DNA of 64,000 nucleotides from a virus. A program made the position numbers and the translations under genes. How positions within the stretch are numbered: the stretch's first letter is position 1; each line of letters begins with the position of its first letter. The notes under the pieces are model-generated. The model searched no databases. It was not told the DNA's origin and was given only the letters and a program-made list of their open reading frames with translations. Positions 28,064 through 57,943 of the stretch are shown piece by piece. Location of the stretch: positions 1 to 64,000 of the IMG/VR virus record IMGVR_UViG_3300009788_000096, one strand, 5' to 3'.

Positions 28064-28216
28064 ATGTCTTATGAAACTGTAAGAAATTGGATGAAAACGA
28101 ACCCTGCGGTTCCGCCCCAAATGCGTAAGTGGGCAGAAGGGATCGACGGTTCTGTTACGTGGATCACAACGACCACGACCACCAGTACTTCTACGACGAC
28201 CACTACGAGTTCTTAA
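28064..28216 (+). CDS. 50-aa protein ending in poly-Thr (possible capsid decoration)
   Basis: AGGAGG SD; MSYETVRNW...WITTTTTTSTSTTTTTSS. Confidence 0.75.
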   Translation: MSYETVRNWMKTNPAVPPQMRKWAEGIDGSVTWITTTTTTSTSTTTTTSS

Positions 28217-28259
28217 TTTTTCCGGTGGTTAGGACACAACGTCGAAAAGGAGTAGAAAA

Positions 28260-28709
28260 ATGACAAGAAGATTTTTCAGGGCAACACTGCCCACCATCGT
28301 ATGGAATCCAAAAGAGGATAGAGCTTTGGCGGAATTTGTCAACGGTCAATTTACTACCGAAGACGAGGAAGTCGCTGAAACCCTTCTTTCTCTCGGCTAT
28401 CCAGAAATTGGTTTGGATGATGAAGCGCCACCCATGATTATCCCCGCACCTGTTAAAGAAATCGGCGATGTGCCGATTATGCCGGGACAAATGACCGAAC
28501 AATCGGCGGCGAAGAAGATCCAAAGGGATGGCATCATGGCCAAGGAGAAAAAACCGGAGGCAACGGACGCTGACACGTCTGAATCAACATCGTCCTCCGG
28601 TGGGACCAGTGAGAAGTCAACTGCTTCCAAGCCGAAAAAGAAATCGGCGAAGAAGAAGAAGGCTCCCGCAAAAAAGAAGTCAAAGCGATCCATTAAAAGG
28701 AGAACGTAA
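28260..28709 (+). CDS. hypothetical head-associated protein, basic tail
   Basis: 'EFVNGQFTTEDEEVAETL...GY'; ends KRSIKRRT. Confidence 0.7.
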   Translation: MTRRFFRATLPTIVWNPKEDRALAEFVNGQFTTEDEEVAETLLSLGYPEIGLDDEAPPMIIPAPVKEIGDVPIMPGQMTEQSAAKKIQRDGIMAKEKKPEATDADTSESTSSSGGTSEKSTASKPKKKSAKKKKAPAKKKSKRSIKRRT

Positions 28710-28712
28710 CCA

Positions 28713-29159
28713 ATGGCTGTCACATTTTATTCTATAGATGATGACATAGTCAAGATCCGGCCAAATATCTTGGGTTTGGGTGTGTCTGATTGGGAAGAGA
28801 AACATCAAAAGGCGTTTGCCATTATTAACCGTACCCTTATAGCTCGATGGTACATGACGGTTGCGGATGATAATGATATTGACTGGCGAACGACTGAATT
28901 CGATCCCGGTAAAATTGATGTTACACAAGTCAATGACTTGTCGTGTTACAAGACTCTTGAGCTTTGTTACATGCATCTCATGAAAGACGCACCTGAGCCG
29001 GATGGTTTTGAACGGCAATCCGATATGTTCCGTAAACGTTATAACGAAGAGTTGCGCGAAATCTTGGCACTTGGATTAAATTATGATTGGGACGAGGATG
29101 ATGAAATCTCGGCCGAAGAAAAATACCAGCCAAGCCAACGTAGATTAGTGCGAGTTTAG
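28713..29159 (+). CDS. head-tail adaptor
   Basis: Position and size; 'YDWDEDDEISAEEK'. Confidence 0.65.
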   Translation: MAVTFYSIDDDIVKIRPNILGLGVSDWEEKHQKAFAIINRTLIARWYMTVADDNDIDWRTTEFDPGKIDVTQVNDLSCYKTLELCYMHLMKDAPEPDGFERQSDMFRKRYNEELREILALGLNYDWDEDDEISAEEKYQPSQRRLVRV

Positions 29160-29161
29160 TT

Positions 29162-29629
29162 ATGCCGGAATCATTGGAGATAAAAAATCTTGACCGCCTT
29201 ATGGGGCGAATCAGTCATGCCGAGCGAAATTGGCTTACTCGGGAACTGATGGCCAAGATCGGTTTGTACATTACTACCCGCATTGCTGCGCGGACTCGTG
29301 TCGGTAAAGATGTTGAGGGGAATATGTTTAAACCGTACTCTGCGAGTTATAAGTTATTCCGAAAGAAAACTGGCCGTACGACGGATATTGTCAACTTAAC
29401 TTTAACAGGCGAGATGATGGCGTCAATGACTTCAGAAGTATTAAGTGATCATGAAGTCAGGGCATTCTTTATGTCCGGTTCAGGTGGTAAAACGGACAAT
29501 CCATCAAAAGCCTTTTTTATCCACACTGCGCAGAATAGGAAATTCTTCGCTCTGAGTGAAGTAGAACAAACTCGGATTTTACAAATGGTTACTGACCATT
29601 TTAACGACATTTTATTTGAGGCAACGTAA
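29162..29629 (+). CDS. virion morphogenesis/tail completion protein (Mu G-like)
   Basis: GKDVEG..FKPYS..Y..VNLTLTGEM..RKFF. Confidence 0.7.
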   Translation: MPESLEIKNLDRLMGRISHAERNWLTRELMAKIGLYITTRIAARTRVGKDVEGNMFKPYSASYKLFRKKTGRTTDIVNLTLTGEMMASMTSEVLSDHEVRAFFMSGSGGKTDNPSKAFFIHTAQNRKFFALSEVEQTRILQMVTDHFNDILFEAT

Positions 29630-30081: not shown

Positions 30082-30082
30082 A

Positions 30083-30643
30083 ATGCCAACACCTGCAAAT
30101 GTCTCAAATCTTGCGATCGGTAAAGGCATCCTCTACATTGGAGAATGGAGCGGAATGACTCCGCCGACCGATCCTGCTGGTTATAGCGATATGGGTAATG
30201 TCACGTCTATCGAGGTAGAACCGATGATTGAAAGGCTGCCGCATTACTCTTCGCGTACCGGCTTTAGAACGAAAGACAAAAACCCGATTATCCAAACCGA
30301 ATATGCTATTCGCTGGGATTGCGATGAGATAGCTGCCGTGAATTTAAAGCTGTTTCTTCTGGGCACCAAAGTTGCCAATGTCATTTCTGCTCTGCAAGCA
30401 ACGGACAAAGAGTATGCCCTCAAGTTTATTTCCGATAATCCCATCGGGCCCAATCAGACGTGGCGTTGTTGGAAGATGACTGTAACTCCCAATGGCCCAT
30501 TGCAGCTGATCGGCGAAGAGTATATGGCAATGAGTTTCGCTGGTGAAGGACTTGCCGATATTGCTAATCACGCAAGCAGTCCTTACATGACCATAACGTA
30601 CGTAACCACAACCACCACAACTACCACAACGACCACTTCTTAA
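30083..30643 (+). CDS. major tail tube protein with C-terminal poly-Thr
   Basis: IGKGILY..MGNV..HYSSR..NPIGP..; ends VTTTTTTTTTTTS. Confidence 0.8.
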   Translation: MPTPANVSNLAIGKGILYIGEWSGMTPPTDPAGYSDMGNVTSIEVEPMIERLPHYSSRTGFRTKDKNPIIQTEYAIRWDCDEIAAVNLKLFLLGTKVANVISALQATDKEYALKFISDNPIGPNQTWRCWKMTVTPNGPLQLIGEEYMAMSFAGEGLADIANHASSPYMTITYVTTTTTTTTTTTS

Positions 30644-30675
30644 TAGTCGGTGGCAAGTTGCAAGCGAGGTAAAAA

Positions 30676-31199: not shown

Positions 31200-31203
31200 G
31201 TCA

Positions 31204-33909
31204 ATGCCAGAAAGCGAAACTTTAGAAATACTTGTAAAACTTCGCGATCAAGCTAAAAAGCCTCTTAGCGCATTCAATGCCGAGTTGGCGGAAACTGAAG
31301 AACTCGCTGATCGAGCGGGAGACCAGTTAGACCAGACACGAAAAGGTTTGGACAGAACTGGGAAACAGTTGACGAAAACTTCTAAAAGAATGAAGAACTT
31401 CAATGCCGGTTTAAAACAATTGAAAGCTGGGCTCACCGGTATTCGTGGAGGTTTAAACTATGCTGTAAGAGGATTGTTCTCTTTAAAGGCTGCATTGGCT
31501 GGCGCTGGTGTGGGTCTGCTCGCAAGAAGCTTTATTCAAGCTGCAAGTACTGCTGAGCAATACCGCACAAGATTGACTGTTTTACTCGGTTCGGTAAAAG
31601 AAGGTAACCGTTTATTTGCGGAAATGACGGAATTTGCTTCAGGCGTAGCCTTTGAATACGAAGAAATCATGGGCGCTGCAACCGCGTTATCTGGTGTTAT
31701 GAAGGGTGGCGTTGATGAAGTAAAAGAATGGATGCCTTTAATATCCGACCTTGCTGCTGCTTCAGGTTTGGGAATACAGGAATCAACTACACAAGTTATC
31801 CGAATGTATTCCTCTGGAGCTGCGGCAGCCGATATGTTTAGGGAAAGAGGCATATTGGCTATGCTCGGTTTTCAAGCTGGTGTTTCTGTTTCTGCAGAAG
31901 AAACCAGAAAAAGATTAATGGAAGCATTTGAAGATCCAGCTTCACGATTCCGTGGAGCAGCCGAATTGTTGTCCAGAACCTGGGGTGGTATGATGTCCAT
32001 GATGTCAGATGCCTGGTTCCAATTCCGAAATACTGTTATGGAAGCTGGTGTGTTTGACTATATCAAAGCTGCCATCCAAATGATGCTTGACTTCTTTAAA
32101 AGGTTAAAGACCGAAGGCAATATGGAAAAATGGGCAAAGAGTCTTTCTGATAATGTTATCGGTGCATTTGAAGTCATTATCAAAGGAGCTGCCCTTGTTG
32201 GTGATGTATTCCGCGGATGGAAAATGATTTGGCTTAGCTTGAAAGTTGCCTTCGCTGCATTCGCACAATATCTCAATACTGGCCTTGCCTTCATTGCAGA
32301 TATAATTGATTCTATCCGTGCGAAGATAAATGAACTTGGAGCGGACGCAGCAAAGATCGGGAAGATATTAAAATTTACTCCCGGTATGCAGGGCCTCGGT
32401 CTGTTGCTTGAACAATTGGAATCCAATAATGTTGAAATCGGAAAGATGGGTGACCAGTTAAGAGACAACGCAAAATTCTGGGAAGACATTGGCGATGAGT
32501 CCGGTGAAGCATTACTTGCAGTGGCCGGTCAGGAATCTTATTATAGTAAAGTGGATGGTTTGCTATCGAAGATTCGGTTAAAGGCCGAAGACTATCGCAA
32601 AGAAGTAGAGAAGGCAGGGACTGCACGACCAGCAACTGCTCTTGTTCCGGAAGCAAGTCTAAAAGCTTTAAGTGCATCTGCGGTGGCTCGCTTAAAAGCT
32701 ACGACCGCCCTCGCTTTAGCGGAGTTGAATGCCTTTTATAAACAAGGTGAGGTTGGGCTGGCAGAATACTTCAATAAAAGGGAATCACTTCTCACGGATC
32801 AATACGAAAAGGAACTTGCTTTACTTCGGAAAAGAGAGTCATTAGTCTCTGCGGAAAAGCCTGAAGAGAAGTTAAAGATCCAAGATCAAATCTTCGCTCT
32901 TGAGAAGAAGTATAATATAGATCGTATTAAGTTACAAGACGATCGGGTCAGTGCGGAGAAAAAGGCGGCATCCGATATACTCGCGATTGATAGGGCATTA
33001 GCGGATATGCGGAAAAATATACTTATGGGGCCGGCTGCTTCGATGCAGGCAATGTTTGATCTGGAAGCAGAAGAGCTCGATCGCAGGCAACAAGAAGAGA
33101 TTCAAAAACTTACTGACTTAAAAGCGCAAGAAGCAGATATCGAGGAAGCGTACAGATTGCAACAACTCGAGAGGGATAAGGTTCTGGCCAATCAGCGCTT
33201 GCGTGTGCAAGAAGCAACAATGGAAGGAATCAAAACAACTCTCGGTTTTATGGAGAGTGCGTTTGCTGATGCCTACGAAGCTTCTGGAGAATCCATCAAG
33301 GAATTCTTTCTACTTCAAAAAGCTGCAGCAATCGCAACGACTATTATATCTACCTACGAAGCTGCACAAAAAGCATATTCTTCAATGGTTGGAATTCCCT
33401 ATGTTGGCCCTGCCCTTGGTATTGCTGCCGCCGCTGCCGCTGTCGCTGGAGGCATGGCGAGAGTCGGAGTTATTCTGGCTCAGAAAATGGCAAAAGGTGG
33501 TATGGTTGAAGGGCATAGTCCAACTGCCACTTCTGATAATATTCCAATCAGCGCAACCGCCGGAGAGTTTATGCAGCCTGTTAGTGCGGTGAAGTATTAT
33601 AGTAAAAGAGGAATGGAAGCGATTAAAAGTAAAATAATTCCTCGTGAAGTCATTGCTGCCTATGCTTCTAACATCCGTCCGCCTGCCCCGAATTATTCTC
33701 GTGGATTCCAAGCTGGCGGTCCAATTGGAAGCGCAGGTGGTGGCGATCAGGAAGCCGGAAAGACTCCGGGTGAAGCAATCAATGTTATCAATGTCCTTGA
33801 TCCAAACTTGATGGATCAATACGTATCAACGGCTCACGGACAGAAGAATATCGTAAACGTAATCAGTCAAAATGCTTTTGCAGTAAAACAAATAATCGAA
33901 GCGGAGTAA
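31204..33909 (+). CDS. tape measure protein
   Basis: 901 aa, Ala-rich helical; 'SRTWGGMMSMMSDAW', C-terminal 'AKGG..G..DNIP...GEF'. Confidence 0.92.
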   Translation: MPESETLEILVKLRDQAKKPLSAFNAELAETEELADRAGDQLDQTRKGLDRTGKQLTKTSKRMKNFNAGLKQLKAGLTGIRGGLNYAVRGLFSLKAALAGAGVGLLARSFIQAASTAEQYRTRLTVLLGSVKEGNRLFAEMTEFASGVAFEYEEIMGAATALSGVMKGGVDEVKEWMPLISDLAAASGLGIQESTTQVIRMYSSGAAAADMFRERGILAMLGFQAGVSVSAEETRKRLMEAFEDPASRFRGAAELLSRTWGGMMSMMSDAWFQFRNTVMEAGVFDYIKAAIQMMLDFFKRLKTEGNMEKWAKSLSDNVIGAFEVIIKGAALVGDVFRGWKMIWLSLKVAFAAFAQYLNTGLAFIADIIDSIRAKINELGADAAKIGKILKFTPGMQGLGLLLEQLESNNVEIGKMGDQLRDNAKFWEDIGDESGEALLAVAGQESYYSKVDGLLSKIRLKAEDYRKEVEKAGTARPATALVPEASLKALSASAVARLKATTALALAELNAFYKQGEVGLAEYFNKRESLLTDQYEKELALLRKRESLVSAEKPEEKLKIQDQIFALEKKYNIDRIKLQDDRVSAEKKAASDILAIDRALADMRKNILMGPAASMQAMFDLEAEELDRRQQEEIQKLTDLKAQEADIEEAYRLQQLERDKVLANQRLRVQEATMEGIKTTLGFMESAFADAYEASGESIKEFFLLQKAAAIATTIISTYEAAQKAYSSMVGIPYVGPALGIAAAAAAVAGGMARVGVILAQKMAKGGMVEGHSPTATSDNIPISATAGEFMQPVSAVKYYSKRGMEAIKSKIIPREVIAAYASNIRPPAPNYSRGFQAGGPIGSAGGGDQEAGKTPGEAINVINVLDPNLMDQYVSTAHGQKNIVNVISQNAFAVKQIIEAE

Positions 33910-33913
33910 AATC

Positions 33914-35188
33914 ATGCCATACCAAACAGGCGTAGTAACACAATTTTTAGGAGCAAACGGATTACTTCAGAAACTTTTAGATTTTATATCAGGAACGGAA
34001 GTAACTGGAGAAACTTTATCTAGCAGCGGAGTCTCATGGTCTGGGAGTTTAGCGAGCTCTCCTGTTGGACTTGGAAGGCTTGTTATTACCTATGAATTTT
34101 CTTCAGTTGAATATGAGGCTACAGATGATGGTTCCGGAAATATCACTGGAACAAATATTTCTGCCGGTACTATCAACTATACCAATGGAGCTTACAGCAT
34201 TACTTTTACTGGCACACCGGACGCAGCGCCAACTGCCGATTATATCCACGGAGTTCCCGGACAGGATTGGCGTGTAGAATTAAACCGAACCACCAGAGAT
34301 GATGGTGGTGATGGATATACGGAACCATGTCCGGGAGCAAAGGAAGTAGTGCTTTCAAATACAGGTCTATCAGGAGCGGAAGCAGTTATTGTTGGAATCA
34401 GGGAATGCTTCTATGTGACGGAAGACTTTTATAACTGGGACTTAAACGGTTATCTGAATTTTAACGCAGCGGGTGAATGGGATCAAAACGCAATCACTCA
34501 TGGGATGCCTACGTATAGTTCTACATTCGAAAGTTTTTATCGCCATCCCGGGATGGCACTTCGTAATGATACAATGAACTATTGGTTCTATTCGAATCAG
34601 CAGCGTTTTATAGTTATAGTAAAGGTTGCATCTAACTATGAATCATGTTATCTCGGCTTTGGCAGGCGATTTGGTAATCCCGGCGATTATCCTTATCCAT
34701 TGTTTATCGGTGGTTGTATTAGTGGAAACAGAATATCATCTGATACTACATTGTTTCATCAATTTTTTATTCAAATAAATCGTGCAGATAATAACTGCCA
34801 AGTTTGGACTGTGACTCCGGGAACGGATTATATGACTTGGATAGGACAATCAAGCGCAAACGCGGGTCAAAGAATACTGCCTTACGGTACATGGGGAGAT
34901 CTGGGTGCGCTTAACCCAACAAAGAATGGCGAACGAATAATGACTCCCGTTTATATATGCCCATATAGTTCGTTACTCGGTTCGCTATATTATGATCTGG
35001 ATGAAGTATATCATATTGCGGGCATTGGCTTACAAAGTGAAGACTTGGTTAATTATGCTGGCAGTAGGTATCGGGTATTTCAAAATATATTCCGAACAAC
35101 TTATTTTGACTATATGGCAGTAAAGGAAGGTGCCGCAGTTTCAACAACGACAACCACGACAACCACGACAACTACGACTTCAACTTAA
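33914..35188 (+). CDS. virion tail protein with C-terminal poly-Thr
   Basis: MPYQTG..., YPYPLFIGG; ends STTTTTTTTTTTTST. Confidence 0.75.
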   Translation: MPYQTGVVTQFLGANGLLQKLLDFISGTEVTGETLSSSGVSWSGSLASSPVGLGRLVITYEFSSVEYEATDDGSGNITGTNISAGTINYTNGAYSITFTGTPDAAPTADYIHGVPGQDWRVELNRTTRDDGGDGYTEPCPGAKEVVLSNTGLSGAEAVIVGIRECFYVTEDFYNWDLNGYLNFNAAGEWDQNAITHGMPTYSSTFESFYRHPGMALRNDTMNYWFYSNQQRFIVIVKVASNYESCYLGFGRRFGNPGDYPYPLFIGGCISGNRISSDTTLFHQFFIQINRADNNCQVWTVTPGTDYMTWIGQSSANAGQRILPYGTWGDLGALNPTKNGERIMTPVYICPYSSLLGSLYYDLDEVYHIAGIGLQSEDLVNYAGSRYRVFQNIFRTTYFDYMAVKEGAAVSTTTTTTTTTTTTST

Positions 35189-45020: not shown

Positions 45021-45230
45021 ATGACTATACTATCACCCAGCGGTTTGGAAACGGACGATTATAGCCAAGCAAATTGGTGGGCAATCTATAACAGAAATGT
45101 GGAACTGTTGAATGCTGTTTTGATAAAGTTGCAGGGATTGGGAGACGTAAAGGTAGACAAGTTAAAAGATGACAGTTTTCTTTTCTGGGATGATGCTAAT
45201 TCGAAATGGAAAGTGGGGATTTATCCATAA
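45021..45230 (+). CDS. small protein paralogous to the fibre N-terminal anchor
   Basis: LSP.GL...Y...W....RN..LL...L.K..G..DV....L.DD..L.WD. Confidence 0.7.
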   Translation: MTILSPSGLETDDYSQANWWAIYNRNVELLNAVLIKLQGLGDVKVDKLKDDSFLFWDDANSKWKVGIYP

Positions 45231-45511
45231 TGGCAACCTATTATACATTGACTAACACTGGTTTGCGTTATTCTGATATTGGTTATTCTGCATGGAATGT
45301 CAATGTCAATAACTATAACTGGAGCGCGCTCAATAATACTCTCTTGAAGTATTCGGCTTTGTTAGACGTTGATCCCACTGGCTTAGTTCAAGGCGACGTT
45401 TTAATATATAACTCATCTTCTGAAAAATGGGAAAGGAAAGCTTTAAACCCTGGCTATCACGTGATCAGTACAACGACAACTACGACTTCTACTACTACGA
45501 CTTCGACATAA
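45230..45511 (+). CDS. small anchor-domain paralog with C-terminal poly-Thr
   Basis: LNNTLLKYSALLDVD...GDVLIYN...STTTTTTSTTTTST. Confidence 0.7.
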   Translation: MATYYTLTNTGLRYSDIGYSAWNVNVNNYNWSALNNTLLKYSALLDVDPTGLVQGDVLIYNSSSEKWERKALNPGYHVISTTTTTTSTTTTST

Positions 45512-45519
45512 GGAGCGGC

Positions 45520-46053
45520 ATGGATATTAAATTCTTCGTAAAAGACTACTGGTCAATTGTTTTAAGTTGCATTGCATTAGTTACTTCCGTCATAATTGTT
45601 TGGAGATATAAGATTCCAGATATTGAGAAGCGACTGACAAAGGTTGAATTAACTTCACATTCGCAAGAAGTAACCCGACTTGACTTAACCGATCGAGTTT
45701 CAAAACATGAAATTTATCGTAAGGATGGAAGCTATATATATCAACAATCTGAGGGTTGCAAGAAGATGCAGGACACATGCCAGACAAAGATCTGCATGAA
45801 AATTGATGGAGTAACTAAAATTATGAATAAACGAATGGTTTCAATCGAAGACAAGATGGAAGAAATGGATCTTTCAAGAGAAAGCACCAGAAGCGAATTT
45901 AAAGAAGTATTAGAAAAATTGCACAAGCAACAAGTTGAGATGGTAAGGGTCGCTACGCAAGTGAAGACATTGCTGGCAAATGGTCAAGCGCAGCAGACCG
46001 CAATTATAGTTAGAGAAGTACTCAAAGAGATCAAACAGAACCGCTTGGTTTAG
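45520..46053 (+). CDS. membrane-anchored coiled-coil protein (lysis region)
   Basis: AGGAG SD; N-terminal TM helix. Confidence 0.65.
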   Translation: MDIKFFVKDYWSIVLSCIALVTSVIIVWRYKIPDIEKRLTKVELTSHSQEVTRLDLTDRVSKHEIYRKDGSYIYQQSEGCKKMQDTCQTKICMKIDGVTKIMNKRMVSIEDKMEEMDLSRESTRSEFKEVLEKLHKQQVEMVRVATQVKTLLANGQAQQTAIIVREVLKEIKQNRLV

Positions 46054-46070
46054 GCAAGGAGGTGTTATAT

Positions 46071-46349
46071 ATGGAAGAAGTTAGTTTTGGGGCTTATGCG
46101 GCTCCGGTGTTGCTAACAGTCATTTTAGGTATTGTCTACAAGTTCGTCGATGCCACTGGTAAATGGAAAGTGTTAATAGCAGTACTCTGCGGAATCGGTC
46201 TGGGAGTGCTTGCTATCGCTTACCAAGGGAAGGAATGGTCCATCGTGAACATTGTGGACTTCGCGATCTACGGATTGATGCTTGGTGCCAGTGCCATTGG
46301 TTTGCATCAAATGCAGAAGCAGGCAAGAAAGCCGAAGAAAAAAGTTTAA
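46071..46349 (+). CDS. holin
   Basis: Three TM helices, GASAIGLHQ, basic C-terminus. Confidence 0.75.
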   Translation: MEEVSFGAYAAPVLLTVILGIVYKFVDATGKWKVLIAVLCGIGLGVLAIAYQGKEWSIVNIVDFAIYGLMLGASAIGLHQMQKQARKPKKKV

Positions 46350-50774: not shown

Positions 50775-51404
50775 ATGATGGCAGTTAAAAGACAAAGTTT
50801 AAAAGGAATTGGAAAGAAGAAGAAAGCTCGCAAAGCGGCAGCTGCACAAGGGCAAATGACGCGATGGTTGAAGCCGACTGGGAATTGGAGCATGGCATGG
50901 GATGTATCAATTACTACAGGCACAGATATTACTCCCAGCGAAAGATTAAAGGAAAAATACACTTGGTGGGATGATAAGTATAGCATCGTTGCGCAGGAAG
51001 TCGCTGCTCCTCCGGGATTCGGGATTTCCTTTAAGTTTAAACCTGTTCCCAAAACACATGACTTTTATGTTGACTTCGTTGGTCATTATACTGGTACGCA
51101 TTCCGGCCCACATTTCCCGCGTGTTGAAATTTGGGATTATAATACGACTGCATGGGTTGATACAGGTATAGAACTGGATCTCACCATGAGCGAAGATCAA
51201 AGTCTTACTTCTAACCTTATAGATAAAACCGGAGATTGGTGGGAAGCAGTAACCGATAATGTCTGGTTACAACTTGCGCATCCTAATGTTGCTGGTAATG
51301 CAGCTCATGAGATTCATGTAACCAAAATGGGCTTGAGGCAAAAAATAGTAATAACAACCACAACCACTACAACGACTACGACAACCACAACGACATCGAG
51401 TTAA
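50775..51404 (+). CDS. protein with basic N-terminus and C-terminal poly-Thr
   Basis: AGGAG SD; ends ITTTTTTTTTTTTTTSS. Confidence 0.7.
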   Translation: MMAVKRQSLKGIGKKKKARKAAAAQGQMTRWLKPTGNWSMAWDVSITTGTDITPSERLKEKYTWWDDKYSIVAQEVAAPPGFGISFKFKPVPKTHDFYVDFVGHYTGTHSGPHFPRVEIWDYNTTAWVDTGIELDLTMSEDQSLTSNLIDKTGDWWEAVTDNVWLQLAHPNVAGNAAHEIHVTKMGLRQKIVITTTTTTTTTTTTTTSS

Positions 51405-51413
51405 GGAGCCATT

Positions 51414-52088
51414 ATGAAAAAGAGAAAAATATTTGTCGCTGCAATGGGCGGGCATGGGACAACCTATATTCAAAAGCATATAGGCCGTTGTGCTAAACGA
51501 CCGGATGTATGTTGGGGTGAAGGGTTGAATATTAAAAAATATCCAGAAGTAATGAAGGATATGCCGGTCGTCGTGAAAGCGAATATCTGGAGGCGACGGA
51601 CAAGAGGCCACGAGTTAAATCCAGAATACACAATAGAAGAAAACTTTGTCAGGATGATTGATTGGACAAAAGAAGATTGGATCTTATTTTCCGGTTGGTG
51701 TTCGATGAAGTCAATGTTTTTAACGGATAATGATATCGCTGCGTTCTGTCTGGTTCGCCATCCTCTTCACGCCTATGTTTCTTACTTCGGCCATCAACAC
51801 CCCAACCATTGTAGAACGCTTGGCGGCTTCAATACTGCCGCTGCGGTTCGCAAGTGGACGGGTCAATGGAATTCCATTATCTCAGATTTCTTGGCCTCGC
51901 CTGGCAAGATAGTCAGATATGAATACTTCTATAAAGACCTTCGTTATTACAAATATATTCGCGATCGGCTTTATCGTTTTGATACAACCAAAAGAAATTA
52001 CAGGGAGTTAAAGAAACCATTAGTCAAGGAACTTAAAGAGCAGGTGTCTGATAACTTCTTCCAAATATATAAGGAGTGGAAGATATGA
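51414..52088 (+). CDS. sulfotransferase-like P-loop protein
   Basis: GGHGTT (5'-PSB-like), LVRHPLHAYVSY (3'-PB-like), IVRYE. Confidence 0.65.
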   Translation: MKKRKIFVAAMGGHGTTYIQKHIGRCAKRPDVCWGEGLNIKKYPEVMKDMPVVVKANIWRRRTRGHELNPEYTIEENFVRMIDWTKEDWILFSGWCSMKSMFLTDNDIAAFCLVRHPLHAYVSYFGHQHPNHCRTLGGFNTAAAVRKWTGQWNSIISDFLASPGKIVRYEYFYKDLRYYKYIRDRLYRFDTTKRNYRELKKPLVKELKEQVSDNFFQIYKEWKI

Positions 52089-52562: not shown

Positions 52563-52563
52563 A

Positions 52564-52698
52564 ATGGCAACTACTACCACTACAACAACAACGACCACTT
52601 CTACGACGACGACAACAATAATTCCGTCTGGCGATCCTAAATTGATTTTTATACATGATGAAGTCAAAAAAGTTTTCAAATATCAAAAGAAAGAATAA
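52564..52698 (+). CDS. 44-aa protein with N-terminal poly-Thr
   Basis: MATTTTTTTTTTSTTTTTIIPSGDPKL...; coupled to the upstream stop codon. Confidence 0.6.
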   Translation: MATTTTTTTTTTSTTTTTIIPSGDPKLIFIHDEVKKVFKYQKKE

Positions 52699-52813
52699 GT
52701 TTTTAAATTTAAAACGAAACAGTTATAAAATGAGTTATAATATATTATAGAAATGTCTTCAATAATGAAGACAAACCGCCACTCATAACCGTGACCCCAT
52801 AGGGGAATCACAA

Positions 52814-54157
52814 ATGAAAAGGAGAAGTCAAATGTTTAAACCTCAGAACGTAGCCATCCTCACCAACTTCCAAGATTTCAATCCCGGCTATTCCCTGTCA
52901 GGAATCGTAGCGGACCAATGTATAATGCTTGATCGCTACGGCCACAAAGTTCATCTTTATACTTGTGATAGTTATAATGATGAATTCGATGATGTTGACC
53001 TGCCATGTGAAGTACACCGAAAAATTCCGTTTTGTCACCTTACCGATTACAAAGAGGAAAAGGATTTTTCCAAGGAACACGAGATGTATGGCAAAACGTT
53101 GAAGAATGTTTTGGTGGAAGAATTCAAGACGAAGAAAATCGAGATTGCTTTTACTCATGATTGGATTTTCACCGGATGGAATCTTCCGTTTTCTTATGGT
53201 ATCCGCCTTGCCAACCCACATCTGGGTGGAGTCAATTGGATGCATTGGGTTCATAGCGTTCCTTCTGATCTTGAATATCCGCAAGGTAGGGATTGGTGGG
53301 ATATTAGGAGATATGGCCCGAATCATAAAATTATTTTCCCCAATGCCATCGAAAGAACCCGGGTGGCCGAACAGTTTAAAGGACAAATTGATGATGTCCG
53401 TATAATCCCGCATATCAAGGATCTGCGAACATGGTATGACTTTGATGAGGAAACATGGGAATTCATAGATGACTTCCCCGGCGTAATGCAAGCGGACATT
53501 GTGCAAATCTATCCGGCTTCCACTGATCGTCTTCGTGCGAAACAGATCGACATGGTTGCAAATCTTTTTGCTCGCTTTAAAGAAAAAGGTTTTACTGTTT
53601 GTCTTGTCGTTGCAAACCAATGGGCAACCGAAAAAGAGCAGGAAAAAGATATCCAAAACTTTTTGGATCTTGCACCTAAACTGGGATTGAAGCCAAATGA
53701 AGAATTGATCTTTACTTCGGCATGGAAAGATGGCAAGTATAATACCGGTCTACCGAAGAAGATATTGAGGGAGCTGCAATTATGTTCCAATATTTTCGTC
53801 TTCCCAACGGTAGAGGAATCATTTGGTCTGGTTGGACCGGAGGCTGCGCTTGGTGGTAACTTCATGGTTCTAAACAAAAGTCTTTATATGATGTTCGAGA
53901 TATTTGGGAACTCTGGACTTTACTGTGATTTCGGTTCCTACCATAACATCTTCGATCCTAAAAATATTGGAATTACTATGGATCAATATCTGGCAGGGGT
54001 TTGTAATCTGATTCTGGGGAGGTTTTCACAGAATGAAGTATTTCAAACCCGGACTTGGTGTCGAAGAGTTTATAATATGGATAACCTATATAATCAAGTC
54101 TACCAACCGTTGATGGCAGAGTCCCGTCTGTGGGGCTTCCCCACCAAAGCATTATAA
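52814..54157 (+). CDS. GT-B (GT4-like) glycosyltransferase
   Basis: NIFVFPTVEESFGLVGPEA (ExxGxxxxEA). Confidence 0.85.
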   Translation: MKRRSQMFKPQNVAILTNFQDFNPGYSLSGIVADQCIMLDRYGHKVHLYTCDSYNDEFDDVDLPCEVHRKIPFCHLTDYKEEKDFSKEHEMYGKTLKNVLVEEFKTKKIEIAFTHDWIFTGWNLPFSYGIRLANPHLGGVNWMHWVHSVPSDLEYPQGRDWWDIRRYGPNHKIIFPNAIERTRVAEQFKGQIDDVRIIPHIKDLRTWYDFDEETWEFIDDFPGVMQADIVQIYPASTDRLRAKQIDMVANLFARFKEKGFTVCLVVANQWATEKEQEKDIQNFLDLAPKLGLKPNEELIFTSAWKDGKYNTGLPKKILRELQLCSNIFVFPTVEESFGLVGPEAALGGNFMVLNKSLYMMFEIFGNSGLYCDFGSYHNIFDPKNIGITMDQYLAGVCNLILGRFSQNEVFQTRTWCRRVYNMDNLYNQVYQPLMAESRLWGFPTKAL

Positions 54158-54167
54158 GGAGGCAAAG

Positions 54168-55388
54168 ATGGAGATAACCATTAAGTCATTTAACGGCATT
54201 GGTGATTTACTTTTTGTAACTCCAACGCTGAAAGTAATTAAGGAGGCCTATCCTGATTGTCATATAACAGTCAATACTAATTATCCGGACTTGTTGGAGG
54301 ACAATCCAAACGTTGACGTGATTGGATCTGAGAACGTAGGAACGTTTCTGGGGTACGATGATCCAATTCACCAGAAATGGCCGACAGCGCATCATATATT
54401 AAAGGACTGGCATATAATCTGTGAAGAATATGGCCTGCATACTGATAAGCCAGCGCTGCAACCAGAACTTTATCTTAATTTTATGACGGCACTGGATGTG
54501 CTTGAAAAACATCGATCCCCAATAGGAGTGCAAATTATACACAAGGGGCATTGGCATGCAAAAAAGATTTGGCCTAAATTTGATTATCTTTCGCGGCTCC
54601 CTAAGTTTGTGCCAATTCCAAAGGTGCCTTCGATTAAGGATTTGATTTACTTCATTGCTTGTTGCAAGGCGGTAGTATGCGCTGAAGGTGGAATCTCACA
54701 TATCGCAAAGGCAGTAGGAACACCAGCGATAGTCATTTACGGAGGCTTTGCCAAACCGGAATGGAATGGTTATGAAGATCAAATAAATGTTTGCAATGAA
54801 AAATGGTGTTCCTATTGTTACAACCCGAAACCATGCGAAAATGAAATTGAAAGAATTTGCATGAAAGAAATTTCAATCGAACACGTTTGCCGGCTGGCTG
54901 AAGGTTTGGAAAAGATTCCAGAGCTTGAACAACACAATGCAATGAAGTTTATAAAAGAAGATGCTTTATGTTGGTCAAGAACCTGCTCTTCCCATAGACC
55001 CGACATGTTAGATATCGGTGCTGGCAATAATCCCTTGCGTGGCGCGAGAGGGATAGATACAGGTAAAGATGAAGATGCTTATAACATCTACACAGCGGAT
55101 CGTTCGCAAGATTTTATCTTCTCTTCCCATTGCATCGAGCATTTGGATTATCCTTCTAAAGCTTTGAGAGAATGGAGCAGAGTGCTTCGTACCGGCGGTC
55201 TGCTTTATCTTTATTTCCCGTCGCCGGATTATATACCTTGGAGACAGAAGTCAATGCCGAAATGGCATAAGCATGATTTTCGCATTGAAAGTATTTTGGC
55301 AATGCTCCCCGACGATTTATACCCAATTGAAATCGCCCATACAGATTGGTTCTTCGGTCAAAAAATTATAGCGAGAAAGGAAAAGTAA
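54168..55388 (+). CDS. GT9-like glycosyltransferase fused to a SAM methyltransferase
   Basis: GIGDLLFVTP..EGGISHIAKAVGTP; LDIGAG..FSSHCIEH..RVLRTGG. Confidence 0.85.
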   Translation: MEITIKSFNGIGDLLFVTPTLKVIKEAYPDCHITVNTNYPDLLEDNPNVDVIGSENVGTFLGYDDPIHQKWPTAHHILKDWHIICEEYGLHTDKPALQPELYLNFMTALDVLEKHRSPIGVQIIHKGHWHAKKIWPKFDYLSRLPKFVPIPKVPSIKDLIYFIACCKAVVCAEGGISHIAKAVGTPAIVIYGGFAKPEWNGYEDQINVCNEKWCSYCYNPKPCENEIERICMKEISIEHVCRLAEGLEKIPELEQHNAMKFIKEDALCWSRTCSSHRPDMLDIGAGNNPLRGARGIDTGKDEDAYNIYTADRSQDFIFSSHCIEHLDYPSKALREWSRVLRTGGLLYLYFPSPDYIPWRQKSMPKWHKHDFRIESILAMLPDDLYPIEIAHTDWFFGQKIIARKEK

Positions 55389-55389
55389 A

Positions 55390-56172
55390 ATGGCTAAAAA
55401 AATGATCAAGAAGCAAAAACTTAAATGCACGGCGGAGGGTTACAAAGAAGCATTGAACCGGGTGAGGGCTGCGGAAGATCCTGTTGATGCGCTTTGCAAA
55501 TTTTATAATGAAACAGTCGGGATGAAAAAAGGCCGGACGGTTTTCGATACGCAATTTGTTCCGTTCATCGAGAAGTATGGATGTGACAGGGAAATAAGTT
55601 TGGAGATTGGCTATGGCCCCGGTTCTCTTGTGGCCGAAGCAGGGAAGCATTTCCGTGAGACATGGGGGATAGATGCTCATGAGGCACGGAATCTGGTTGG
55701 CCATTTGTTGGAAGCAAATGAATGCTATAACTATAAACTCCTTATCAGTCCTGATGGAAGAAGTATTCCCACGAAGAAAAATAACATTGACTTCATTTAT
55801 TCATGGACTGTTTTTATGCACTTCGGGAAAATCGGTATCGCCAGTGATTATCTTCGTGATGCCTATGCGGTTTTGAAACCGGGAGGTCTGGCGCTCATTT
55901 ACTTCTCCAGAATGTATCGAAGTCGAAAGCATGAAACAAAAGAGGAATGGCTGGCTGCAATTGAGCACGAAGAGGAAATGGAACGGTATCGAGAGATTAG
56001 TGGCAGTACAATCCAAAAGATTAATCTTCAAATCTCCATGCAGCAAATGGTTGATATGTGCGAATGTGTCGGTTTTGAAGTCTTGGAACGAACGGCATCG
56101 ACCAGAAGAATCGACGGAATACTTTGCCACCACGGTCAACATGGGGTAGTACTTCGAAAAGAAAAGGAGTAA
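55390..56172 (+). CDS. class I SAM-dependent methyltransferase
   Basis: LEIGYGPG, IDFIYSWTVFMH, VLKPGG. Confidence 0.85.
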   Translation: MAKKMIKKQKLKCTAEGYKEALNRVRAAEDPVDALCKFYNETVGMKKGRTVFDTQFVPFIEKYGCDREISLEIGYGPGSLVAEAGKHFRETWGIDAHEARNLVGHLLEANECYNYKLLISPDGRSIPTKKNNIDFIYSWTVFMHFGKIGIASDYLRDAYAVLKPGGLALIYFSRMYRSRKHETKEEWLAAIEHEEEMERYREISGSTIQKINLQISMQQMVDMCECVGFEVLERTASTRRIDGILCHHGQHGVVLRKEKE

Positions 56173-56175
56173 AAC

Positions 56176-56898
56176 ATGAGAGAAAAAGAAGTTGCAGTTG
56201 TGGCAATGCCAAGGACAGGCTCCACATATCTTTTTAGATGCTTGGCTGGTCTCAAGCATGCAGGTGGAAGTCCGAAAGGCGCCAACCTTGCAAAGCTTCC
56301 AATAATGAAGTGCCACAGTTTAGCTCCACCCGAAACTTTCGGTGATCCGTGGTCAAGCCAAATAAGTGAGCATTGTCTTAAAGGAAGAAAAGTCATTTGG
56401 CTTTTCGGTGATCCAATAGCTTCTGTCGTTTCCACAATGAAGAAAAGGTTTGACCATGTTCATGCGAAGAATTGTGGCTGCTTTAAACCGCTGGGGATGG
56501 TGGATCTGATAGATAGAGATGACTTTAACTATGAGTGGATGTTTGACTCATGGACATCTATCCGACATGACTTTCCCGTTTTATGTGTAAGGTATGAAAC
56601 CTTATGGAAAAACCGTTTTGTGATCGAATGGTTTCTGGGAAGAAAAGTCAAATGGAATGAGTGGAGTCCTCGGTCTAACAGGTGGACCACAGAAGAACTT
56701 CCAAACTTTCTTTCGAAAGCCTTAAATAAAACCTATTCAAGTTTGGTTGAAAAAGTTCAAATGCATCCGGATGTAACTTTAAATGGTGGAGATACATTGA
56801 GAATATCCGGGGATTTGGTAAGGATAGAAAAAGGCGTTGGATTTGGCAAAAACTATTTTTATGACTTAGTAAAAAAAGGAGAAACGGAAAATGGCTGA
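56176..56898 (+). CDS. sulfotransferase-like protein
   Basis: MPRTGSTYL, KCH, DPIASVVS, VRYETL. Confidence 0.75.
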   Translation: MREKEVAVVAMPRTGSTYLFRCLAGLKHAGGSPKGANLAKLPIMKCHSLAPPETFGDPWSSQISEHCLKGRKVIWLFGDPIASVVSTMKKRFDHVHAKNCGCFKPLGMVDLIDRDDFNYEWMFDSWTSIRHDFPVLCVRYETLWKNRFVIEWFLGRKVKWNEWSPRSNRWTTEELPNFLSKALNKTYSSLVEKVQMHPDVTLNGGDTLRISGDLVRIEKGVGFGKNYFYDLVKKGETENG

Positions 56899-57943
56899 GC
56901 TGTCAATTATTGTACCGTATGTGAACGAGTATCCACAAATCCTTTTTACACTTCAAAGTATTGCGCAAGACCTACGAGGTCGCGTTGACTTTGAAGTCAT
57001 TGCTGTAAACAACTATTGCGATGAAGTCATTGCTCAAGATCGCGATAGCACAAGACGAATCATTCGAAGATTAAAAGCATTTTACAATATCGAGGCTTCA
57101 GATGAAGAAATTGTTGAAACATTGGTCGGTGAAGAAATTGGACTCATTGGGCCAGAAGATAAAGGTGGCAAGGCAGTAGAAGCATGTGCTAAAGGGAACG
57201 ACTGGCTTACGGCGATTTCATACACGGACAAGTTAAGTCATTGGAATGCGAAGCGTTTCGGCATTGAAAATAGCAGTGGTGATTATTTTCAATTCATTGA
57301 TTCCCATTGCATCGTCGGCCGGAATTTGCTGTATGATATGTTTGACTTTTATAAAGATAACGCTTGGAGCATGGATGGCACGCTCCATCCGCCCTTGACA
57401 TATCTCATTTTGGAATGGCGAAGATTAATATATGGATTAAGATTTGTCCATACCGAAAAACAAGCGCAACTTGACTATAAGTTTTCGAGTTACCAACATC
57501 CCGAGAGTGGCTTGCCATACGAGGTTCCGTGTATGTCGACTTGTGGTATGCTAATGACTCGGGAGCTATACGAAGAAACTGGTGGCTGGCCTAAAGAACT
57601 GGGAATTTATAGTGGAGGCGAGCACTTCATGAATTTCACCCTTGCTGTTCTTGGAAAGAAGAAGTATATCTTTCCAACTAAATTTGCGTTGTATCATCAT
57701 GCCGAAAAAAGAGGATATGCTTTTAACTCCGGTGATACTCTTCGCAATCGCTTAATAGCAGCATATCTATACGGTGGCCTTGATTGGTTTTATGAAAATA
57801 TAAAGAAGTGTAAAGGTCGGCCAAATGTGATTAAGAAGTTTCAAGCGGAGATTCCATTATTGTGCAAAGATCAGCGGCAATGGATTAAAGATCGACAAGA
57901 GATGACTATATTCGAATGGCTGGAAAAGTGGGGAAAGATATGA
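56891..57943 (+). CDS. GT-A glycosyltransferase resembling polypeptide GalNAc-transferases (GT2/GT27-like)
   Basis: SIIVPYVNE, FIDSHC (DxH), PCMSTCGMLMTRELYEETGGW..IYSGGE, YHH. Confidence 0.8.
   Translation: MAELSIIVPYVNEYPQILFTLQSIAQDLRGRVDFEVIAVNNYCDEVIAQDRDSTRRIIRRLKAFYNIEASDEEIVETLVGEEIGLIGPEDKGGKAVEACAKGNDWLTAISYTDKLSHWNAKRFGIENSSGDYFQFIDSHCIVGRNLLYDMFDFYKDNAWSMDGTLHPPLTYLILEWRRLIYGLRFVHTEKQAQLDYKFSSYQHPESGLPYEVPCMSTCGMLMTRELYEETGGWPKELGIYSGGEHFMNFTLAVLGKKKYIFPTKFALYHHAEKRGYAFNSGDTLRNRLIAAYLYGGLDWFYENIKKCKGRPNVIKKFQAEIPLLCKDQRQWIKDRQEMTIFEWLEKWGKI

Follow-up and report, generated by a model that had tools for sequence, protein, structure and literature searches.

Thr/Ser runs in the late proteins

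The window analysed here comprises 64,000 bases of DNA (positions 1 to 64,000 of IMG/VR record IMGVR_UViG_3300009788_000096) from the 95,402-base genome of an uncultured subsurface phage. Its late region encodes the following proteins with long runs of Thr and Ser.

28064-28216, plus strand: mini-protein of 50 residues just 3' of the major capsid gene; conserved head of ~34 residues, then a 16-residue Thr/Ser tail
30083-30643, plus strand: tail tube (major tail) protein (phrog_807, E 1.4e-25); 12-residue C-terminal Thr tail
33914-35188, plus strand: structural protein of 424 residues, after the tape-measure gene (phrog_687, E 3e-32); 15-residue C-terminal tail
41459-43729, plus strand: fibre-like protein of 756 residues with SPRY domains in two stretches (Pfam E 3.7e-22); Thr runs at four internal sites, and a Thr tail of 16 residues at the C-terminus
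43738-45012, plus strand: ConA-like lectin protein of 424 residues (Laminin_G_3, PF13385, E 1.6e-11); one internal run of 19 residues and a 16-residue C-terminal tail
45230-45511, plus strand: small fibre-like protein, paralogue of 45021-45230; 14-residue C-terminal tail
48019-50769, plus strand: late protein of 916 residues; 16-residue C-terminal tail
50775-51404, plus strand: late protein of 209 residues, no family assigned (Pfam, PHROG); 16-residue C-terminal tail
52564-52698, plus strand: doubtful ORF of 44 residues; N-terminal 16-residue Thr run

Scanning all six frames, both in the window and across the full genome, for at least 12 consecutive Thr/Ser residues, mostly Thr, yielded 14 runs, all lying in real ORFs on the plus strand and all confined to positions 28,166 to 52,617. 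The pure Thr/Ser runs measure 12 to 19 residues, not 11 to more than 20 as given in the initial annotation. Ser-only runs elsewhere in the genome are found on the strand opposite genes encoding acidic runs.

In the first eight ORFs listed, a run is C-terminal and abuts the stop codon. The single N-terminal run belongs to the ORF at 52564, which lacks a clear ribosome-binding site and for which tblastn gave no homologue among the relatives; of the nine tagged proteins originally counted, eight stand and the ninth is doubtful. Codon usage in the runs is mixed, as had been noted (ACA 66, ACT 43, ACG 41, and ACC 32, plus Ser codons), and ~2e-7 runs of 12 residues would be expected by chance from the composition of the tagged proteins. 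Judged from the sequence, the tags are far beyond chance and are selected at the peptide level, because their codons are mixed and they are limited to late plus-strand ORFs. A linker role had been considered impossible for the C-terminal runs, which holds for the eight tails ending at a stop codon; the internal runs, however, sit between globular domains (SPRY and ConA-like) in two fibre-like proteins and therefore may double as linkers.

The mini-protein gene at 28064 has a strong ribosome-binding site (GAGGAGG), and dozens of relatives keep a member of its family behind the capsid gene, with Thr-rich or Ser-rich tails of 12 to 83 residues. The mini-protein is a candidate capsid-decoration carrier of a glyco-tag; the capsid subunit itself carries no tag. 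The PHROG match bears out the earlier assignment of 30083 as tail tube, and its tail recurs at the same position in relatives, as does that of the 33914-type protein, ~7 kb past the capsid gene. The ORF at 45230 proved real by translation and start-codon analysis, which also places the start of the neighbouring holin-like gene at 45520 rather than 45427; homologues of the 45230 protein were found in three relatives (G002, G003, and G005). No Pfam or PHROG family matched the 916-residue protein at 48019, and its Atlas neighbours, which are structural-like clusters from viruses with scores under 0.9 throughout, give a weak lead to a fibre or spike.

A glycan cassette at the end of the late operon

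The late structural operon closes, without a change of strand, with a glycan cassette, listed here with the P-loop-like gene at 51414 and the last gene of the operon.

51414-52088, plus strand: protein of 224 residues with an N-terminal P-loop-like motif in common with the 56176 gene
52814-54157, plus strand: GT-B fold glycosyltransferase of distant GT4/group 1 type (Pfam GT4 below threshold; AF2 pLDDT 91.7)
54168-55388, plus strand: GT9-like (heptosyltransferase-type) and class I methyltransferase fusion (PF01075, E 2.9e-11; PF08241, E 6.5e-10)
55390-56172, plus strand: class I SAM methyltransferase (Pfam Methyltransf_11/23/25, E ~5e-8)
56176-56898, plus strand: sulfotransferase-like protein (sub-threshold Pfam matches to Sulfotransfer_1, E 2.8e-4, and to Sulfotransfer_3, E 5.6e-3)
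56891-57943, plus strand: soluble GT-A glycosyltransferase resembling the catalytic domain of GT27 polypeptide GalNAc-transferases
57916-58344, plus strand: protein of 142 residues, last of the late operon, kept in poly-Thr and poly-Ser relatives

The GT-A enzyme at 56891, whose initial assignment to this fold agrees with Pfam, is GT27-like by three methods. First, the best PDB matches of its profile are GalNAc-T10, TgGalNAc-T3, T7, and T4 (E 9e-9 to 2e-7), in alignments that take in the DxH and Gal/GalNAc-T motifs as well as the third His. Second, among the top matches listed by Foldseek for its AF2 model (pLDDT 92.6), all are ppGalNAc-Ts (E ~1e-15, ~365 columns). Third, an exhaustive VIA-align comparison of the same model gave Z 26.3 to GalNAc-T1 and Z 24.9 to TgGalNAc-T3 (284 and 282 residues aligned), whereas other GT-A folds score 19.9 or less. 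By profile and fold, GT27 is thus the best match over the whole 350 residues, despite a sequence identity of 13-17%. The D137-x-H139, GGEHF, and H269/H270 motifs are conserved across 33 homologues and correspond to the DxH, the Gal/GalNAc-T-type GGEN, and the distal His of eukaryotic GT27 enzymes (GalNAc-T1, T2, T4, T10, T12, and Toxoplasma GalNAc-T3), with which the phage enzyme would also share mucin-like Thr runs as presumed acceptors. Unlike those enzymes, which reside in the Golgi lumen and have a ricin-type lectin domain, a signal anchor, and a stem region, the phage-encoded protein is predicted to be cytoplasmic: no lectin domain, signal peptide, or membrane anchor was seen, and in the AF2 model the first strand begins at residue 4. 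The missing signal peptide and anchor, and the place of the cassette in the late operon, fit modification in the cytoplasm during assembly. To our knowledge, all characterised GT27 enzymes act on Ser/Thr residues of polypeptides, with Thr preferred. The enzyme at 56891 is therefore, as far as its sequence and model go, a candidate initiating peptide O-glycosyltransferase.

The other genes of the cassette are less uniform. The gene at 52814, first called GT4, has a GT-B fold in its model, albeit with a Pfam GT4 match below threshold; its best folds are BshA, PimB', WaaB, TarM, and MshA (Z 15-17), and its family counts at least 567 proteins. Pfam confirms both halves of the GT9-methyltransferase fusion, which matches PDB entries 3tov and 1psw weakly, and also the separate methyltransferase. 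By tblastn neither gene is conserved among the relatives; both are variable accessory genes, and other methyltransferases are present in the relatives' cassettes. Two sulfotransferase-like genes had been proposed. For the one at 56176, a PDB sequence search gave no match, and the proposal rests on the sub-threshold Pfam hits and on its likeness to sulfotransferase clusters in the Atlas (feature score 0.95-0.97, structure TM 0.65). The second, probably 51414-52088, is without a Pfam match and shares with the 56176 protein only the N-terminal P-loop-like motif (pairwise BLASTP E 0.007, residues 1-48), so that it may be sulfotransferase-like. The 142-residue protein has no Pfam family, and tblastn matched it in five relatives (G001-G003, G007, and G008).

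Tails and cassette in relatives and in other viruses

Most capsid-gene relatives, spanning GC contents of 0.34 to 0.62, carry tails at orthologous positions, ~180, 2600, and 7000 bases downstream of that gene. All eight relatives with Ser/Thr tails that reach the cassette region have a glycan cassette there; G007 and G008 are near-identical, so that the eight represent seven independent cases. The 52814-type GT-B is present in six of the eight, namely in all six poly-Thr relatives (G001-G005 and G009), and is the cassette gene that most consistently accompanies poly-Thr tails; further homologues occur in G017, G035, G042, and G047. The GT27-like enzyme is present in four (G001, G002, G003, and G005). 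It was not detected in G004 and G009, which have tails, and is therefore not indispensable; the cassette of G004 instead contains a GT-A with a Glyco_transf_7C-type motif, a sulfotransferase-like gene, and an NAD-dependent epimerase/dehydratase, and that of G009 a methyltransferase and an NAD-dependent epimerase/dehydratase. In G007 and G008, the poly-Ser relatives, another type of glycan cassette occupies this place, and both encode a 594-residue protein with ~236 Ser and a 785-residue protein with a GT1/GT-B domain. In the complete, tail-less relative G011 no glycosyltransferase was found, whereas G006 lacks tails yet has a GT2-like gene. The comparison comprises about eight tagged relatives (seven independent) against two untagged ones; all of these are akin, so that their shared pattern does not amount to separate, independent events. 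By sequence comparison tags and cassette are linked across the relatives, where they are present, absent, or switched together.

Beyond these relatives, Thr/Ser-rich ORFs lie within 10 kb of a GT-A homologue at eight of nine unrelated viral loci. Some of these are contigs of jumbo size in which runs exceeding 100 residues follow immediately downstream, and at five loci (L004-L008) the GT27-like gene is directly upstream of Thr-rich genes. In the reverse direction, a GT27-like or GT-B enzyme was sought in 37 viral records that contain 12 or more consecutive ACN codons: 5 of 10 records with C-terminal tails have one, against 2 of 27 whose runs are all internal (Fisher p = 0.009). An 18-kb fragment carrying three tails breaks off exactly where a GT-B gene begins. 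Most of these contigs have neither enzyme, although they are mostly fragments with internal runs; the enzymes are enriched in those with C-terminal tails. No close homologue was found in cultured phages, and in 50,697 phage records tblastn gave no mycobacteriophage match for the GT27-like enzyme or for the GT-B enzyme. A distant GT27-like gene occurs in the Tunturiibacter phage Tunturi_4, whose first 22 kb encode no Ser/Thr tails.

A putative system for O-glycosylation of the virion

The particle of this phage is probably sugar-coated, considering its eight tailed particle proteins and a cassette whose key enzyme is predicted to be shaped like the animal enzymes that initiate mucin glycosylation. 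We put at about 0.7 the probability that the phage encodes a cytoplasmic, mucin-type-like O-glycosylation of its virion, with the poly-Thr tails as acceptors and the GT27-like enzyme initiating. The core of the initial annotation, with the poly-Thr tails as acceptors for phage-encoded O-glycosylation of the virion, is supported by the GT27 likeness, the relatives, the GT-A loci, and the reverse test. In the proposed scheme, eight proteins made late in infection (the capsid-adjacent mini-protein, tail tube, post-tape-measure protein, two lectin-domain fibre proteins, small fibre-like protein, and two late proteins) would expose disordered tails of 12-16 Thr ending in Ser. The GT27-like enzyme, in which D137, H139, and H269 are predicted to make up a Mn2+ site, would most likely place the first sugar, probably HexNAc from a UDP-sugar, on Thr hydroxyls. 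The GT-B enzyme and the variable accessory genes (the GT9-like/methyltransferase fusion, the methyltransferase, and the sulfotransferase-like gene or genes) would then extend and decorate the glycan, giving a brush over head, tail, and fibres. From sequence, fold, and co-occurrence we infer sugar attachment, the initiating enzyme, the identity of the sugar, its methylation and sulfation, and a role in shielding, adhesion, or stability. Methylation and sulfation are only suggested, since the genes differ from relative to relative and the sulfotransferase assignments are weak, and the methyltransferases could act on non-sugar targets.

The same system might operate in reversed order, with the GT-B enzyme initiating on the peptide and the GT27-like enzyme extending or densifying the glycan, which we regard as a minor but real possibility. 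GT4-family GtfA is the initiating peptide O-glycosyltransferase for serine-rich repeat proteins of Gram-positive bacteria, and that GtfA/GtfB system resembles the predicted one in cytoplasmic O-glycosylation of long Ser/Thr-rich low-complexity tracts by a GT-B (GT4-type) enzyme plus variable extending enzymes; the Ser-rich 594-residue protein and the GT1/GT-B protein of G007 and G008 add to the likeness. The constant company of GT-B and poly-Thr tails, including in G004 and G009, would fit this order, and the fold neighbours of the GT-B model include the protein O-GlcNAc transferases GtfA (4pqg, Z 12.9) and SdgB (7ec1, Z 12.5). However, GtfA ranks only 20th among its fold matches, showing no specific similarity; BshA, PimB', WaaB, and MshA score higher, in a generic GT4/GT-B pattern where no family stands out. 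The specific peptide-transferase signature belongs instead to the GT27-like enzyme, which also adjoins the Thr-rich genes at L004-L008. Unlike the GtfA/GtfB system, the one predicted here would act on virion proteins rather than secreted adhesins, with no accessory Sec system involved.

It is unlikely that the tails are unglycosylated, serving as hydrophilic flexible hairs or linkers (for instance as spacers, as solubility aids, or to adhere weakly to surfaces of polysaccharide or mineral), while the cassette modifies another target such as host envelope polysaccharide or lipid. Envelope modification would serve superinfection exclusion or receptor masking. The linker-fashion internal runs at 41459 and 43738, the many viral contigs with poly-Thr runs and none of these enzymes, the GT9-type domain typical of LPS-core heptosyltransferases, and the distant GT27-like gene of a cultured phage without Ser/Thr tails in its first 22 kb (Tunturi_4) all agree with such a reading. 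A linker role, however, explains neither the tails at stop codons nor a 50-residue protein that is one-third tail, with tails of up to 83 residues in relatives. It also leaves unexplained why tails and cassette appear, switch from Thr to Ser, and vanish together, and why the soluble enzyme is of the peptide-specific GT27 type.

We know of no DNA glycosyltransferase that is GT27-like. Modification of phage DNA (base hypermodification), with the site beside structural genes incidental, is most improbable even though DNA glycosylation is common among phage glycosyltransferases (review PMC12619734) and an additional weak GT2 match lies at ~78.0 kb on the other strand, because the cassette in the late operon follows the presence and type of protein tails rather than replication genes, and the GT-B model aligns to the phage alpha-glucosyltransferase (1y6f) with a Z of just 11.4, well below generic GT4 enzymes.

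Our literature search found no paper on a poly-Thr tail and cassette system such as the virion O-glycosylation proposed here. Experimental evidence for a sugar coat on virions comes, as far as we know, from mycobacteriophages only. Three of these, Che8, Corndog, and Myrna, encode glycosyltransferases that attach O-linked sugars to their capsid and tail tube subunits at the C-terminus (Freeman et al. 2023, Cell Host Microbe 31:1216, as described in PMC12619734 and PMC12363180). The mycobacteriophages and, by prediction, the present phage have in common phage-encoded glycosyltransferases and O-linked modification of C-termini on abundant surface proteins, the tail tube subunit among them, and in both systems the modification must take place in the cytoplasm while particles assemble. 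The mycobacteriophage acceptors are short Ser/Thr-containing C-termini of two proteins, whereas here near-homopolymeric Thr tails occur on eight. In further contrast, the present phage comes from a subsurface sample, its capsid subunit is untagged with the tail on a separate mini-protein, and its cassette adds methyltransferase and sulfotransferase-like genes. A distant relation is seen in the capsid gene, which has 34-39% identity to those of several mycobacteriophages.

Homopolymer tails on the late proteins

The 95,402-base viral record, of which the window is the first 64 kb, is graded complete by CheckV and derives from the assembly of a subsurface metagenome; the phage is uncultured. No RNA data set was listed as containing the stretch, and the one DNA data set that was listed is probably the source sample. 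No close relative is among 50,697 deposited phage genomes, in which megablast with 20 kb of the region as query found no match. The late block is a single + strand stretch from ~20.6 kb to 58.3 kb, with the following gene classes.

Late block of the window phage
First listed, + strand: portal
23084-25342, + strand: minor-capsid-like fusion protein, 752 aa
27023-27985, + strand: major capsid protein (phrog_1328, E 1.5e-49)
After the major capsid gene, + strand: head-tail genes
30083-30643, + strand: tail tube (phrog_807)
31204-33909, + strand: tape measure
Up to 41454, + strand: tail-tip and baseplate-like genes
41459-43729 and 43738-45012, + strand: two fibre-like proteins with lectin domains (SPRY-domain and ConA-like, respectively)
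45520-46053 and 46062-46349, + strand: holin-like genes
Between the holin-like genes and the sugar-enzyme block, + strand: several unknown genes
Last part of the late block, + strand: sugar-handling enzyme block

The likeliest start of the first holin-like gene is 45520, which has a ribosome-binding site (AAGGAG), rather than 45427. Just upstream lie two small fibre-like paralogues, 45021-45230 and 45230-45511, whose stop and start codons overlap as TAATG. A promoter and terminator scan of 44.5-59.5 kb found none that was clear between the structural genes and the glycan-gene cassette, with counts so close to shuffled-sequence levels that the scan says little. A tRNA-Gly(UCC) gene is located at 20015-20087, between the early block and the late one. 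The 752-aa protein has an N-terminus like phage minor capsid protein 2 together with ADP-ribosyltransferase (PARP/ART-PolyVal) and ATLF-like metalloprotease-type domains, and may be an injected polyvalent protein.

A six-frame scan found 14 Thr-dominated Thr/Ser runs, each in the reading frame of a plausible + strand gene and none outside 28.1-52.6 kb of the 95-kb genome; the initial annotation had likewise placed such runs in late proteins. Eight of them abut the stop codon, in the ORFs starting at 28064, 30083, 33914, 41459, 43738, 45230, 48019 and 50775, which bears out the description of most runs as lying at the extreme C-terminus. Five are internal to the SPRY-domain and ConA-like proteins, and one opens the N-terminus of a doubtful 44-aa ORF at 52564. 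The runs are indeed long, although their measured length is 12-19 residues rather than 11 to more than 20. All four ACN codons are used throughout, as had been noted from the sequence, and given the composition of the carrier proteins the chance expectation of such runs is ~2e-7. The residue before each tail is hydrophobic and the tail usually ends in S, ST or SS. Some pairs of tags share 25-31 identical bases (e.g. 35141-35185 and 44368-44424), the longest match slightly exceeding the maximum of 29 in a synonymous-codon null (300 trials), and this hint at the nucleotide level suggests that tags may have been copied between genes. The capsid subunit itself ends in ...TSLATS, with no run, and the tail at this position is borne by a separate 50-aa mini-protein (28064-28216) encoded 3' of the capsid gene.

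Two glycosyltransferases at the end of the late block

The sugar-handling block comprises six genes or candidate genes of interest.

Cassette enzymes of the window phage
52814-54157, + strand: GT-B enzyme
Enzyme block, + strand: GT9-like/methyltransferase fusion
Enzyme block, + strand: methyltransferase
56176-56898, + strand: sulfotransferase-like protein (sub-threshold Pfam matches, Atlas support)
56891-57943, + strand: GT-A enzyme
Enzyme block, + strand: conserved 142-aa protein

The two glycosyltransferases, the GT9-like/methyltransferase fusion and the methyltransferase agree with the cluster first described there, but of its two sulfotransferase-like genes one has sub-threshold Pfam matches and Atlas support and the candidate for the other, 51414-52088, has only an N-terminal P-loop-like motif in common with the 56176-56898 product. 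The latter had no match among PDB sequences and no pairwise similarity to a sulfotransferase-like gene in the relative G004, which indicates that the sulfotransferase-like genes of different cassettes are not orthologues.

At least 689 proteins, mostly metagenomic, make up the family of the GT-A enzyme. Searched as a single sequence, the enzyme had one PDB match, GalNAc-T10 (E 0.06), and a 33-member family profile had its best PDB matches in GalNAc-T10, Toxoplasma GalNAc-T3 (TgGalNAc-T3), T7 and T4 (E 9e-9 to 2e-7), that is, in the polypeptide GalNAc-transferases (ppGalNAc-Ts) of family GT27. These profile alignments span the DxH motif, the Gal/GalNAc-T motif and the distal His. In the 33-member alignment D137 is invariant and H139 nearly so, within an F-x-D-x-H-C motif that aligns with FLDSHC of GalNAc-T10 and provides the D-x-H Mn2+-binding motif of GT27. 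The second half of the catalytic domain holds a Gal/GalNAc-T motif (WGGEN...SF type; GGGEN-type in the alignment), and ELGIYSGGEHFMNFTLAVLG of the GT-A enzyme aligned with a 20-residue stretch of T10 and the matching stretch of TgGalNAc-T3. The nearly invariant H269/H270 align with the GHV His of TgGalNAc-T3, the distal metal ligand.

The AlphaFold (AF2) model has a GT-A fold (pLDDT 92.6). Among the Foldseek matches listed, all the top ones were ppGalNAc-Ts (E 1e-15 to 3e-12, ~365 columns). An exhaustive VIA-align comparison with 48,161 representative chains ranked GalNAc-T1 (Z 26.3, 284 residues, rmsd 3.0) and TgGalNAc-T3 (Z 24.9) first, by a margin of 5-6 Z units over all other GT-A enzymes, the next family scoring at most 19.9, and both methods thus place GT27 closer to the enzyme than any other glycosyltransferase family. 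Unlike canonical GT27 enzymes, it lacks a lectin domain and a membrane anchor: Pfam found no C-terminal ricin-type (CBM13) domain in the 350-aa protein, which the catalytic domain fills, and the first beta-strand begins at residue 4, leaving no room for the anchor of a type II membrane protein. Judged from sequence and model, the GT-A enzyme, of the polypeptide GalNAc-transferase type, consists of a soluble catalytic domain and is no canonical GT27 member. Its genomic association with poly-Thr genes suggests that it may transfer GalNAc from UDP-GalNAc to Ser/Thr of polypeptides.

The GT-B enzyme has at least 567 homologues (~50% identity), many of which match Pfam GT4/GT1, for which the window protein is below cut-off. 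Its sequence alone had no match among PDB sequences, and its profile gave only weak, generic GT4 matches. The AF2 model (pLDDT 91.7) shows the two Rossmann domains of a GT-B fold, with Z of 15-17 to BshA, PimB', WaaB, PimA, TarM and MshA, and E329 and E337, invariant in 32 homologues, fit the conserved C-terminal Glu-containing nucleotide-sugar site of such enzymes. The fold is thus GT4-type but generic, and no single family is closest to it.

Taken together with the tails, these enzymes can be arranged into a virion glycosylation pathway. The acceptors would be the tails, disordered and exposed on the surface of head, tail and fibres; the soluble GT27-like enzyme would initiate O-glycosylation at Thr residues while particles are being assembled in the cytoplasm; and the GT-B and accessory enzymes would extend and decorate the glycan, possibly with methyl and sulfate groups.

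Association of tails with enzymes in relatives and other viruses

More than 128 relatives of the capsid protein were found in IMG/VR, most with S/T tails at the same three places 3' of the capsid gene (mini-protein, tail tube and post-tape-measure protein), over a GC range of 0.34-0.62. The mini-protein family, just 3' of the capsid gene (28064-28216 here, L010-L079 in other viral records), has a ~35-aa head with an NPGxxPxxR-type motif and a pure S/T tail of 12-83 residues. Its gene is often duplicated, with one short and one very long tail, and in five loci (L011, L015, L019, L052 and L060) poly-Ser takes the place of poly-Thr in the tail. The late proteins of the window were all mapped on the full comparison set of 12 longer relatives, and runs were counted.

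Tails and late-block ends in longer relatives of the window phage (G-numbers)
G001, G002, G003, G005: poly-Thr tails; GT-B homologue and GT27-like enzyme
G004, G009: poly-Thr tails; GT-B homologue and NAD-dependent epimerase/dehydratase
G007, G008 (near-identical): Ser-rich tails at the same positions; different cassette
G011 (complete): no tails; no glycosyltransferase
G006: no tails; an exception in having one GT2-like gene close to the head genes

Poly-Thr tails and enzymes, whose co-occurrence had been put forward as a check, are thus linked in G001-G005 and G009. G004 also has a different GT-A enzyme with a Glyco_transf_7C-type motif, a sulfotransferase-like gene and a further GT2-like gene, and G009 a methyltransferase; a 286-aa ORF of G009 did not match the GT27-like profile. 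Among relatives the GT-B enzyme is therefore the more constant partner of the tails, and this makes initiation by GT-B, rather than by the GT27-like enzyme, the main alternative within the glycosylation model. The accessory genes of the window (GT9/methyltransferase fusion, methyltransferase and sulfotransferase-like gene) are not conserved in the relatives, which fits a variable tailoring set.

G007 and G008 cannot serve as poly-Thr-negative controls, since they have poly-Ser tails and a glycan cassette of their own. The latter encodes a 785-aa protein (GT1 domain at the C-terminus), a radical SAM/SPASM enzyme, a hexapeptide acyltransferase and a GT2-like protein, immediately 5' of the conserved 142-aa gene (L099:2308-8541, minus strand, in G007; also L248). 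As relatives of the 785-aa glycosyltransferase had Ser-rich ORFs nearby in two of four independent loci, the pairing of Ser tag and cassette is only a lead. The poly-Ser-tailed relatives (G007; L248) also encode a 594-aa protein with ~236 serines.

Outside this lineage, eight of nine viral loci found via the GT-A protein had Thr/Ser-rich ORFs within 10 kb, and on the large contigs runs of 50-120 residues lie directly 3' of the GT-A homologue. In the reverse direction, the sample was of viral contigs in which 12 or more ACN codons follow one another, and 37 of their records were searched with both enzyme profiles. One or both enzymes were present in 5/10 records with C-terminal tails vs 2/27 with internal runs only (Fisher p = 0.009; p = 0.02 with a weak match counted), and because most records are fragments the absences weigh little; one 18-kb fragment with three tails stops within a GT-B gene, at its first 47 residues. 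Clearly, some phages that have neither the GT27-like nor the GT-B enzyme still possess poly-Thr linkers.

The tails might be read as non-glycosylated 'hair or linker', yet this leaves unexplained the tails that abut stop codons, a protein that is mostly tail, and the joint change of tag and cassette, and we consider it less probable than glycosylation. Modification of DNA by the cassette is improbable, fitting poorly with the GT27-type fold, the late-operon position and the linkage with protein tails. With conserved tags, a GT27-type enzyme and genomic linkage in its favour, virion O-glycosylation, the initial interpretation of the locus, is the reading we prefer, at a probability of roughly 0.7 for the window phage; our confidence is lower for the GT27-like enzyme as initiator and for methylation and sulfation of the glycan.

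Comparison with known systems

To our knowledge, glycosylation of phage particles has been proven experimentally only for mycobacteriophages. In these, it blunts antibody recognition. The nearest described system is the virion glycosylation of mycobacteriophages (Freeman et al. 2023, as presented in PMC12619734 and PMC12363180). The window phage would have the logic and the tail-tube target in common with Che8, Corndog and Myrna: its tail tube has a C-terminal tail and glycosyltransferases are present. In contrast to mycobacteriophages, its tag is a homopolymer on eight proteins, and the capsid subunit itself is untagged, the mini-protein being tailed instead. Nor are its enzymes homologous to those of Che8 and Corndog as far as tblastn can tell: among 50,697 phage records, GT-B had no match, the mycobacteriophages included, and the GT27-like enzyme had one weak match, in Tunturiibacter phage Tunturi_4 (L254, PP885687.1). 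This gene, the only cultured-phage relative of the GT27-like enzyme in those records, lies at 1567-2565 between the terminase and portal genes, and its product is 24.5% identical with a FLDNHC motif; no Ser/Thr tails were seen on virion proteins in the first 22 kb of Tunturi_4. On the glycosylation reading, the window system is a variant form of phage virion glycosylation, and a new one. Our literature search found no paper on poly-threonine or mucin-like phage tags or on phage GT27-like enzymes, and as far as it reached the pairing of the two is unpublished.

It is tempting to speculate, at slightly less than even odds, that, in uncultured environmental bacteria, tailed phages have a 'mucin' system of their own that is self-contained and works in the cytoplasm. 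In this scenario, a portable Ser/Thr homopolymer tag would pass by copying from one virion gene to another and also to a dedicated mini-protein of the capsid, a soluble relative of animal GalNAc-transferases would start dense O-glycosylation, and exchangeable tailoring cassettes would match the tag type (GT27-like and GT-B for Thr, another set for Ser). If so, mucin-type initiation enzymes would not be a eukaryotic invention, and variable glycan coats would be common on phage particles in nature. The locus and the metagenomic homologues of its two core enzymes, which number in the hundreds, suggest a second, unrelated and far more extensive system in environmental phages, whose easily recognised tag would make glycosylated virion proteins predictable from sequence alone. 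Small, soluble, lectin-free GT27 relatives with a homopolymeric acceptor could help to test the mechanism and origin of mucin-type initiation, and could find use in the bacterial production of mucin-like glycopeptides. A glycan coat that varies would bear on phage ecology and therapy through its effects on adsorption, stability, recognition and adhesion to biofilms or particles.

Very long tracts were seen on three contigs of 142-277 kb (L004, L006 and L008), where the GT27-like gene is followed directly by genes for several proteins with Thr/Ser runs of 50 to >120 residues, broken by PP or by motifs with cysteine. Near another GT-A homologue, a 365-aa ORF (L005:1082-2180) consists largely of C-S-T triplet repeats and may be a genuine protein or else an out-of-frame reading of some other repeat.
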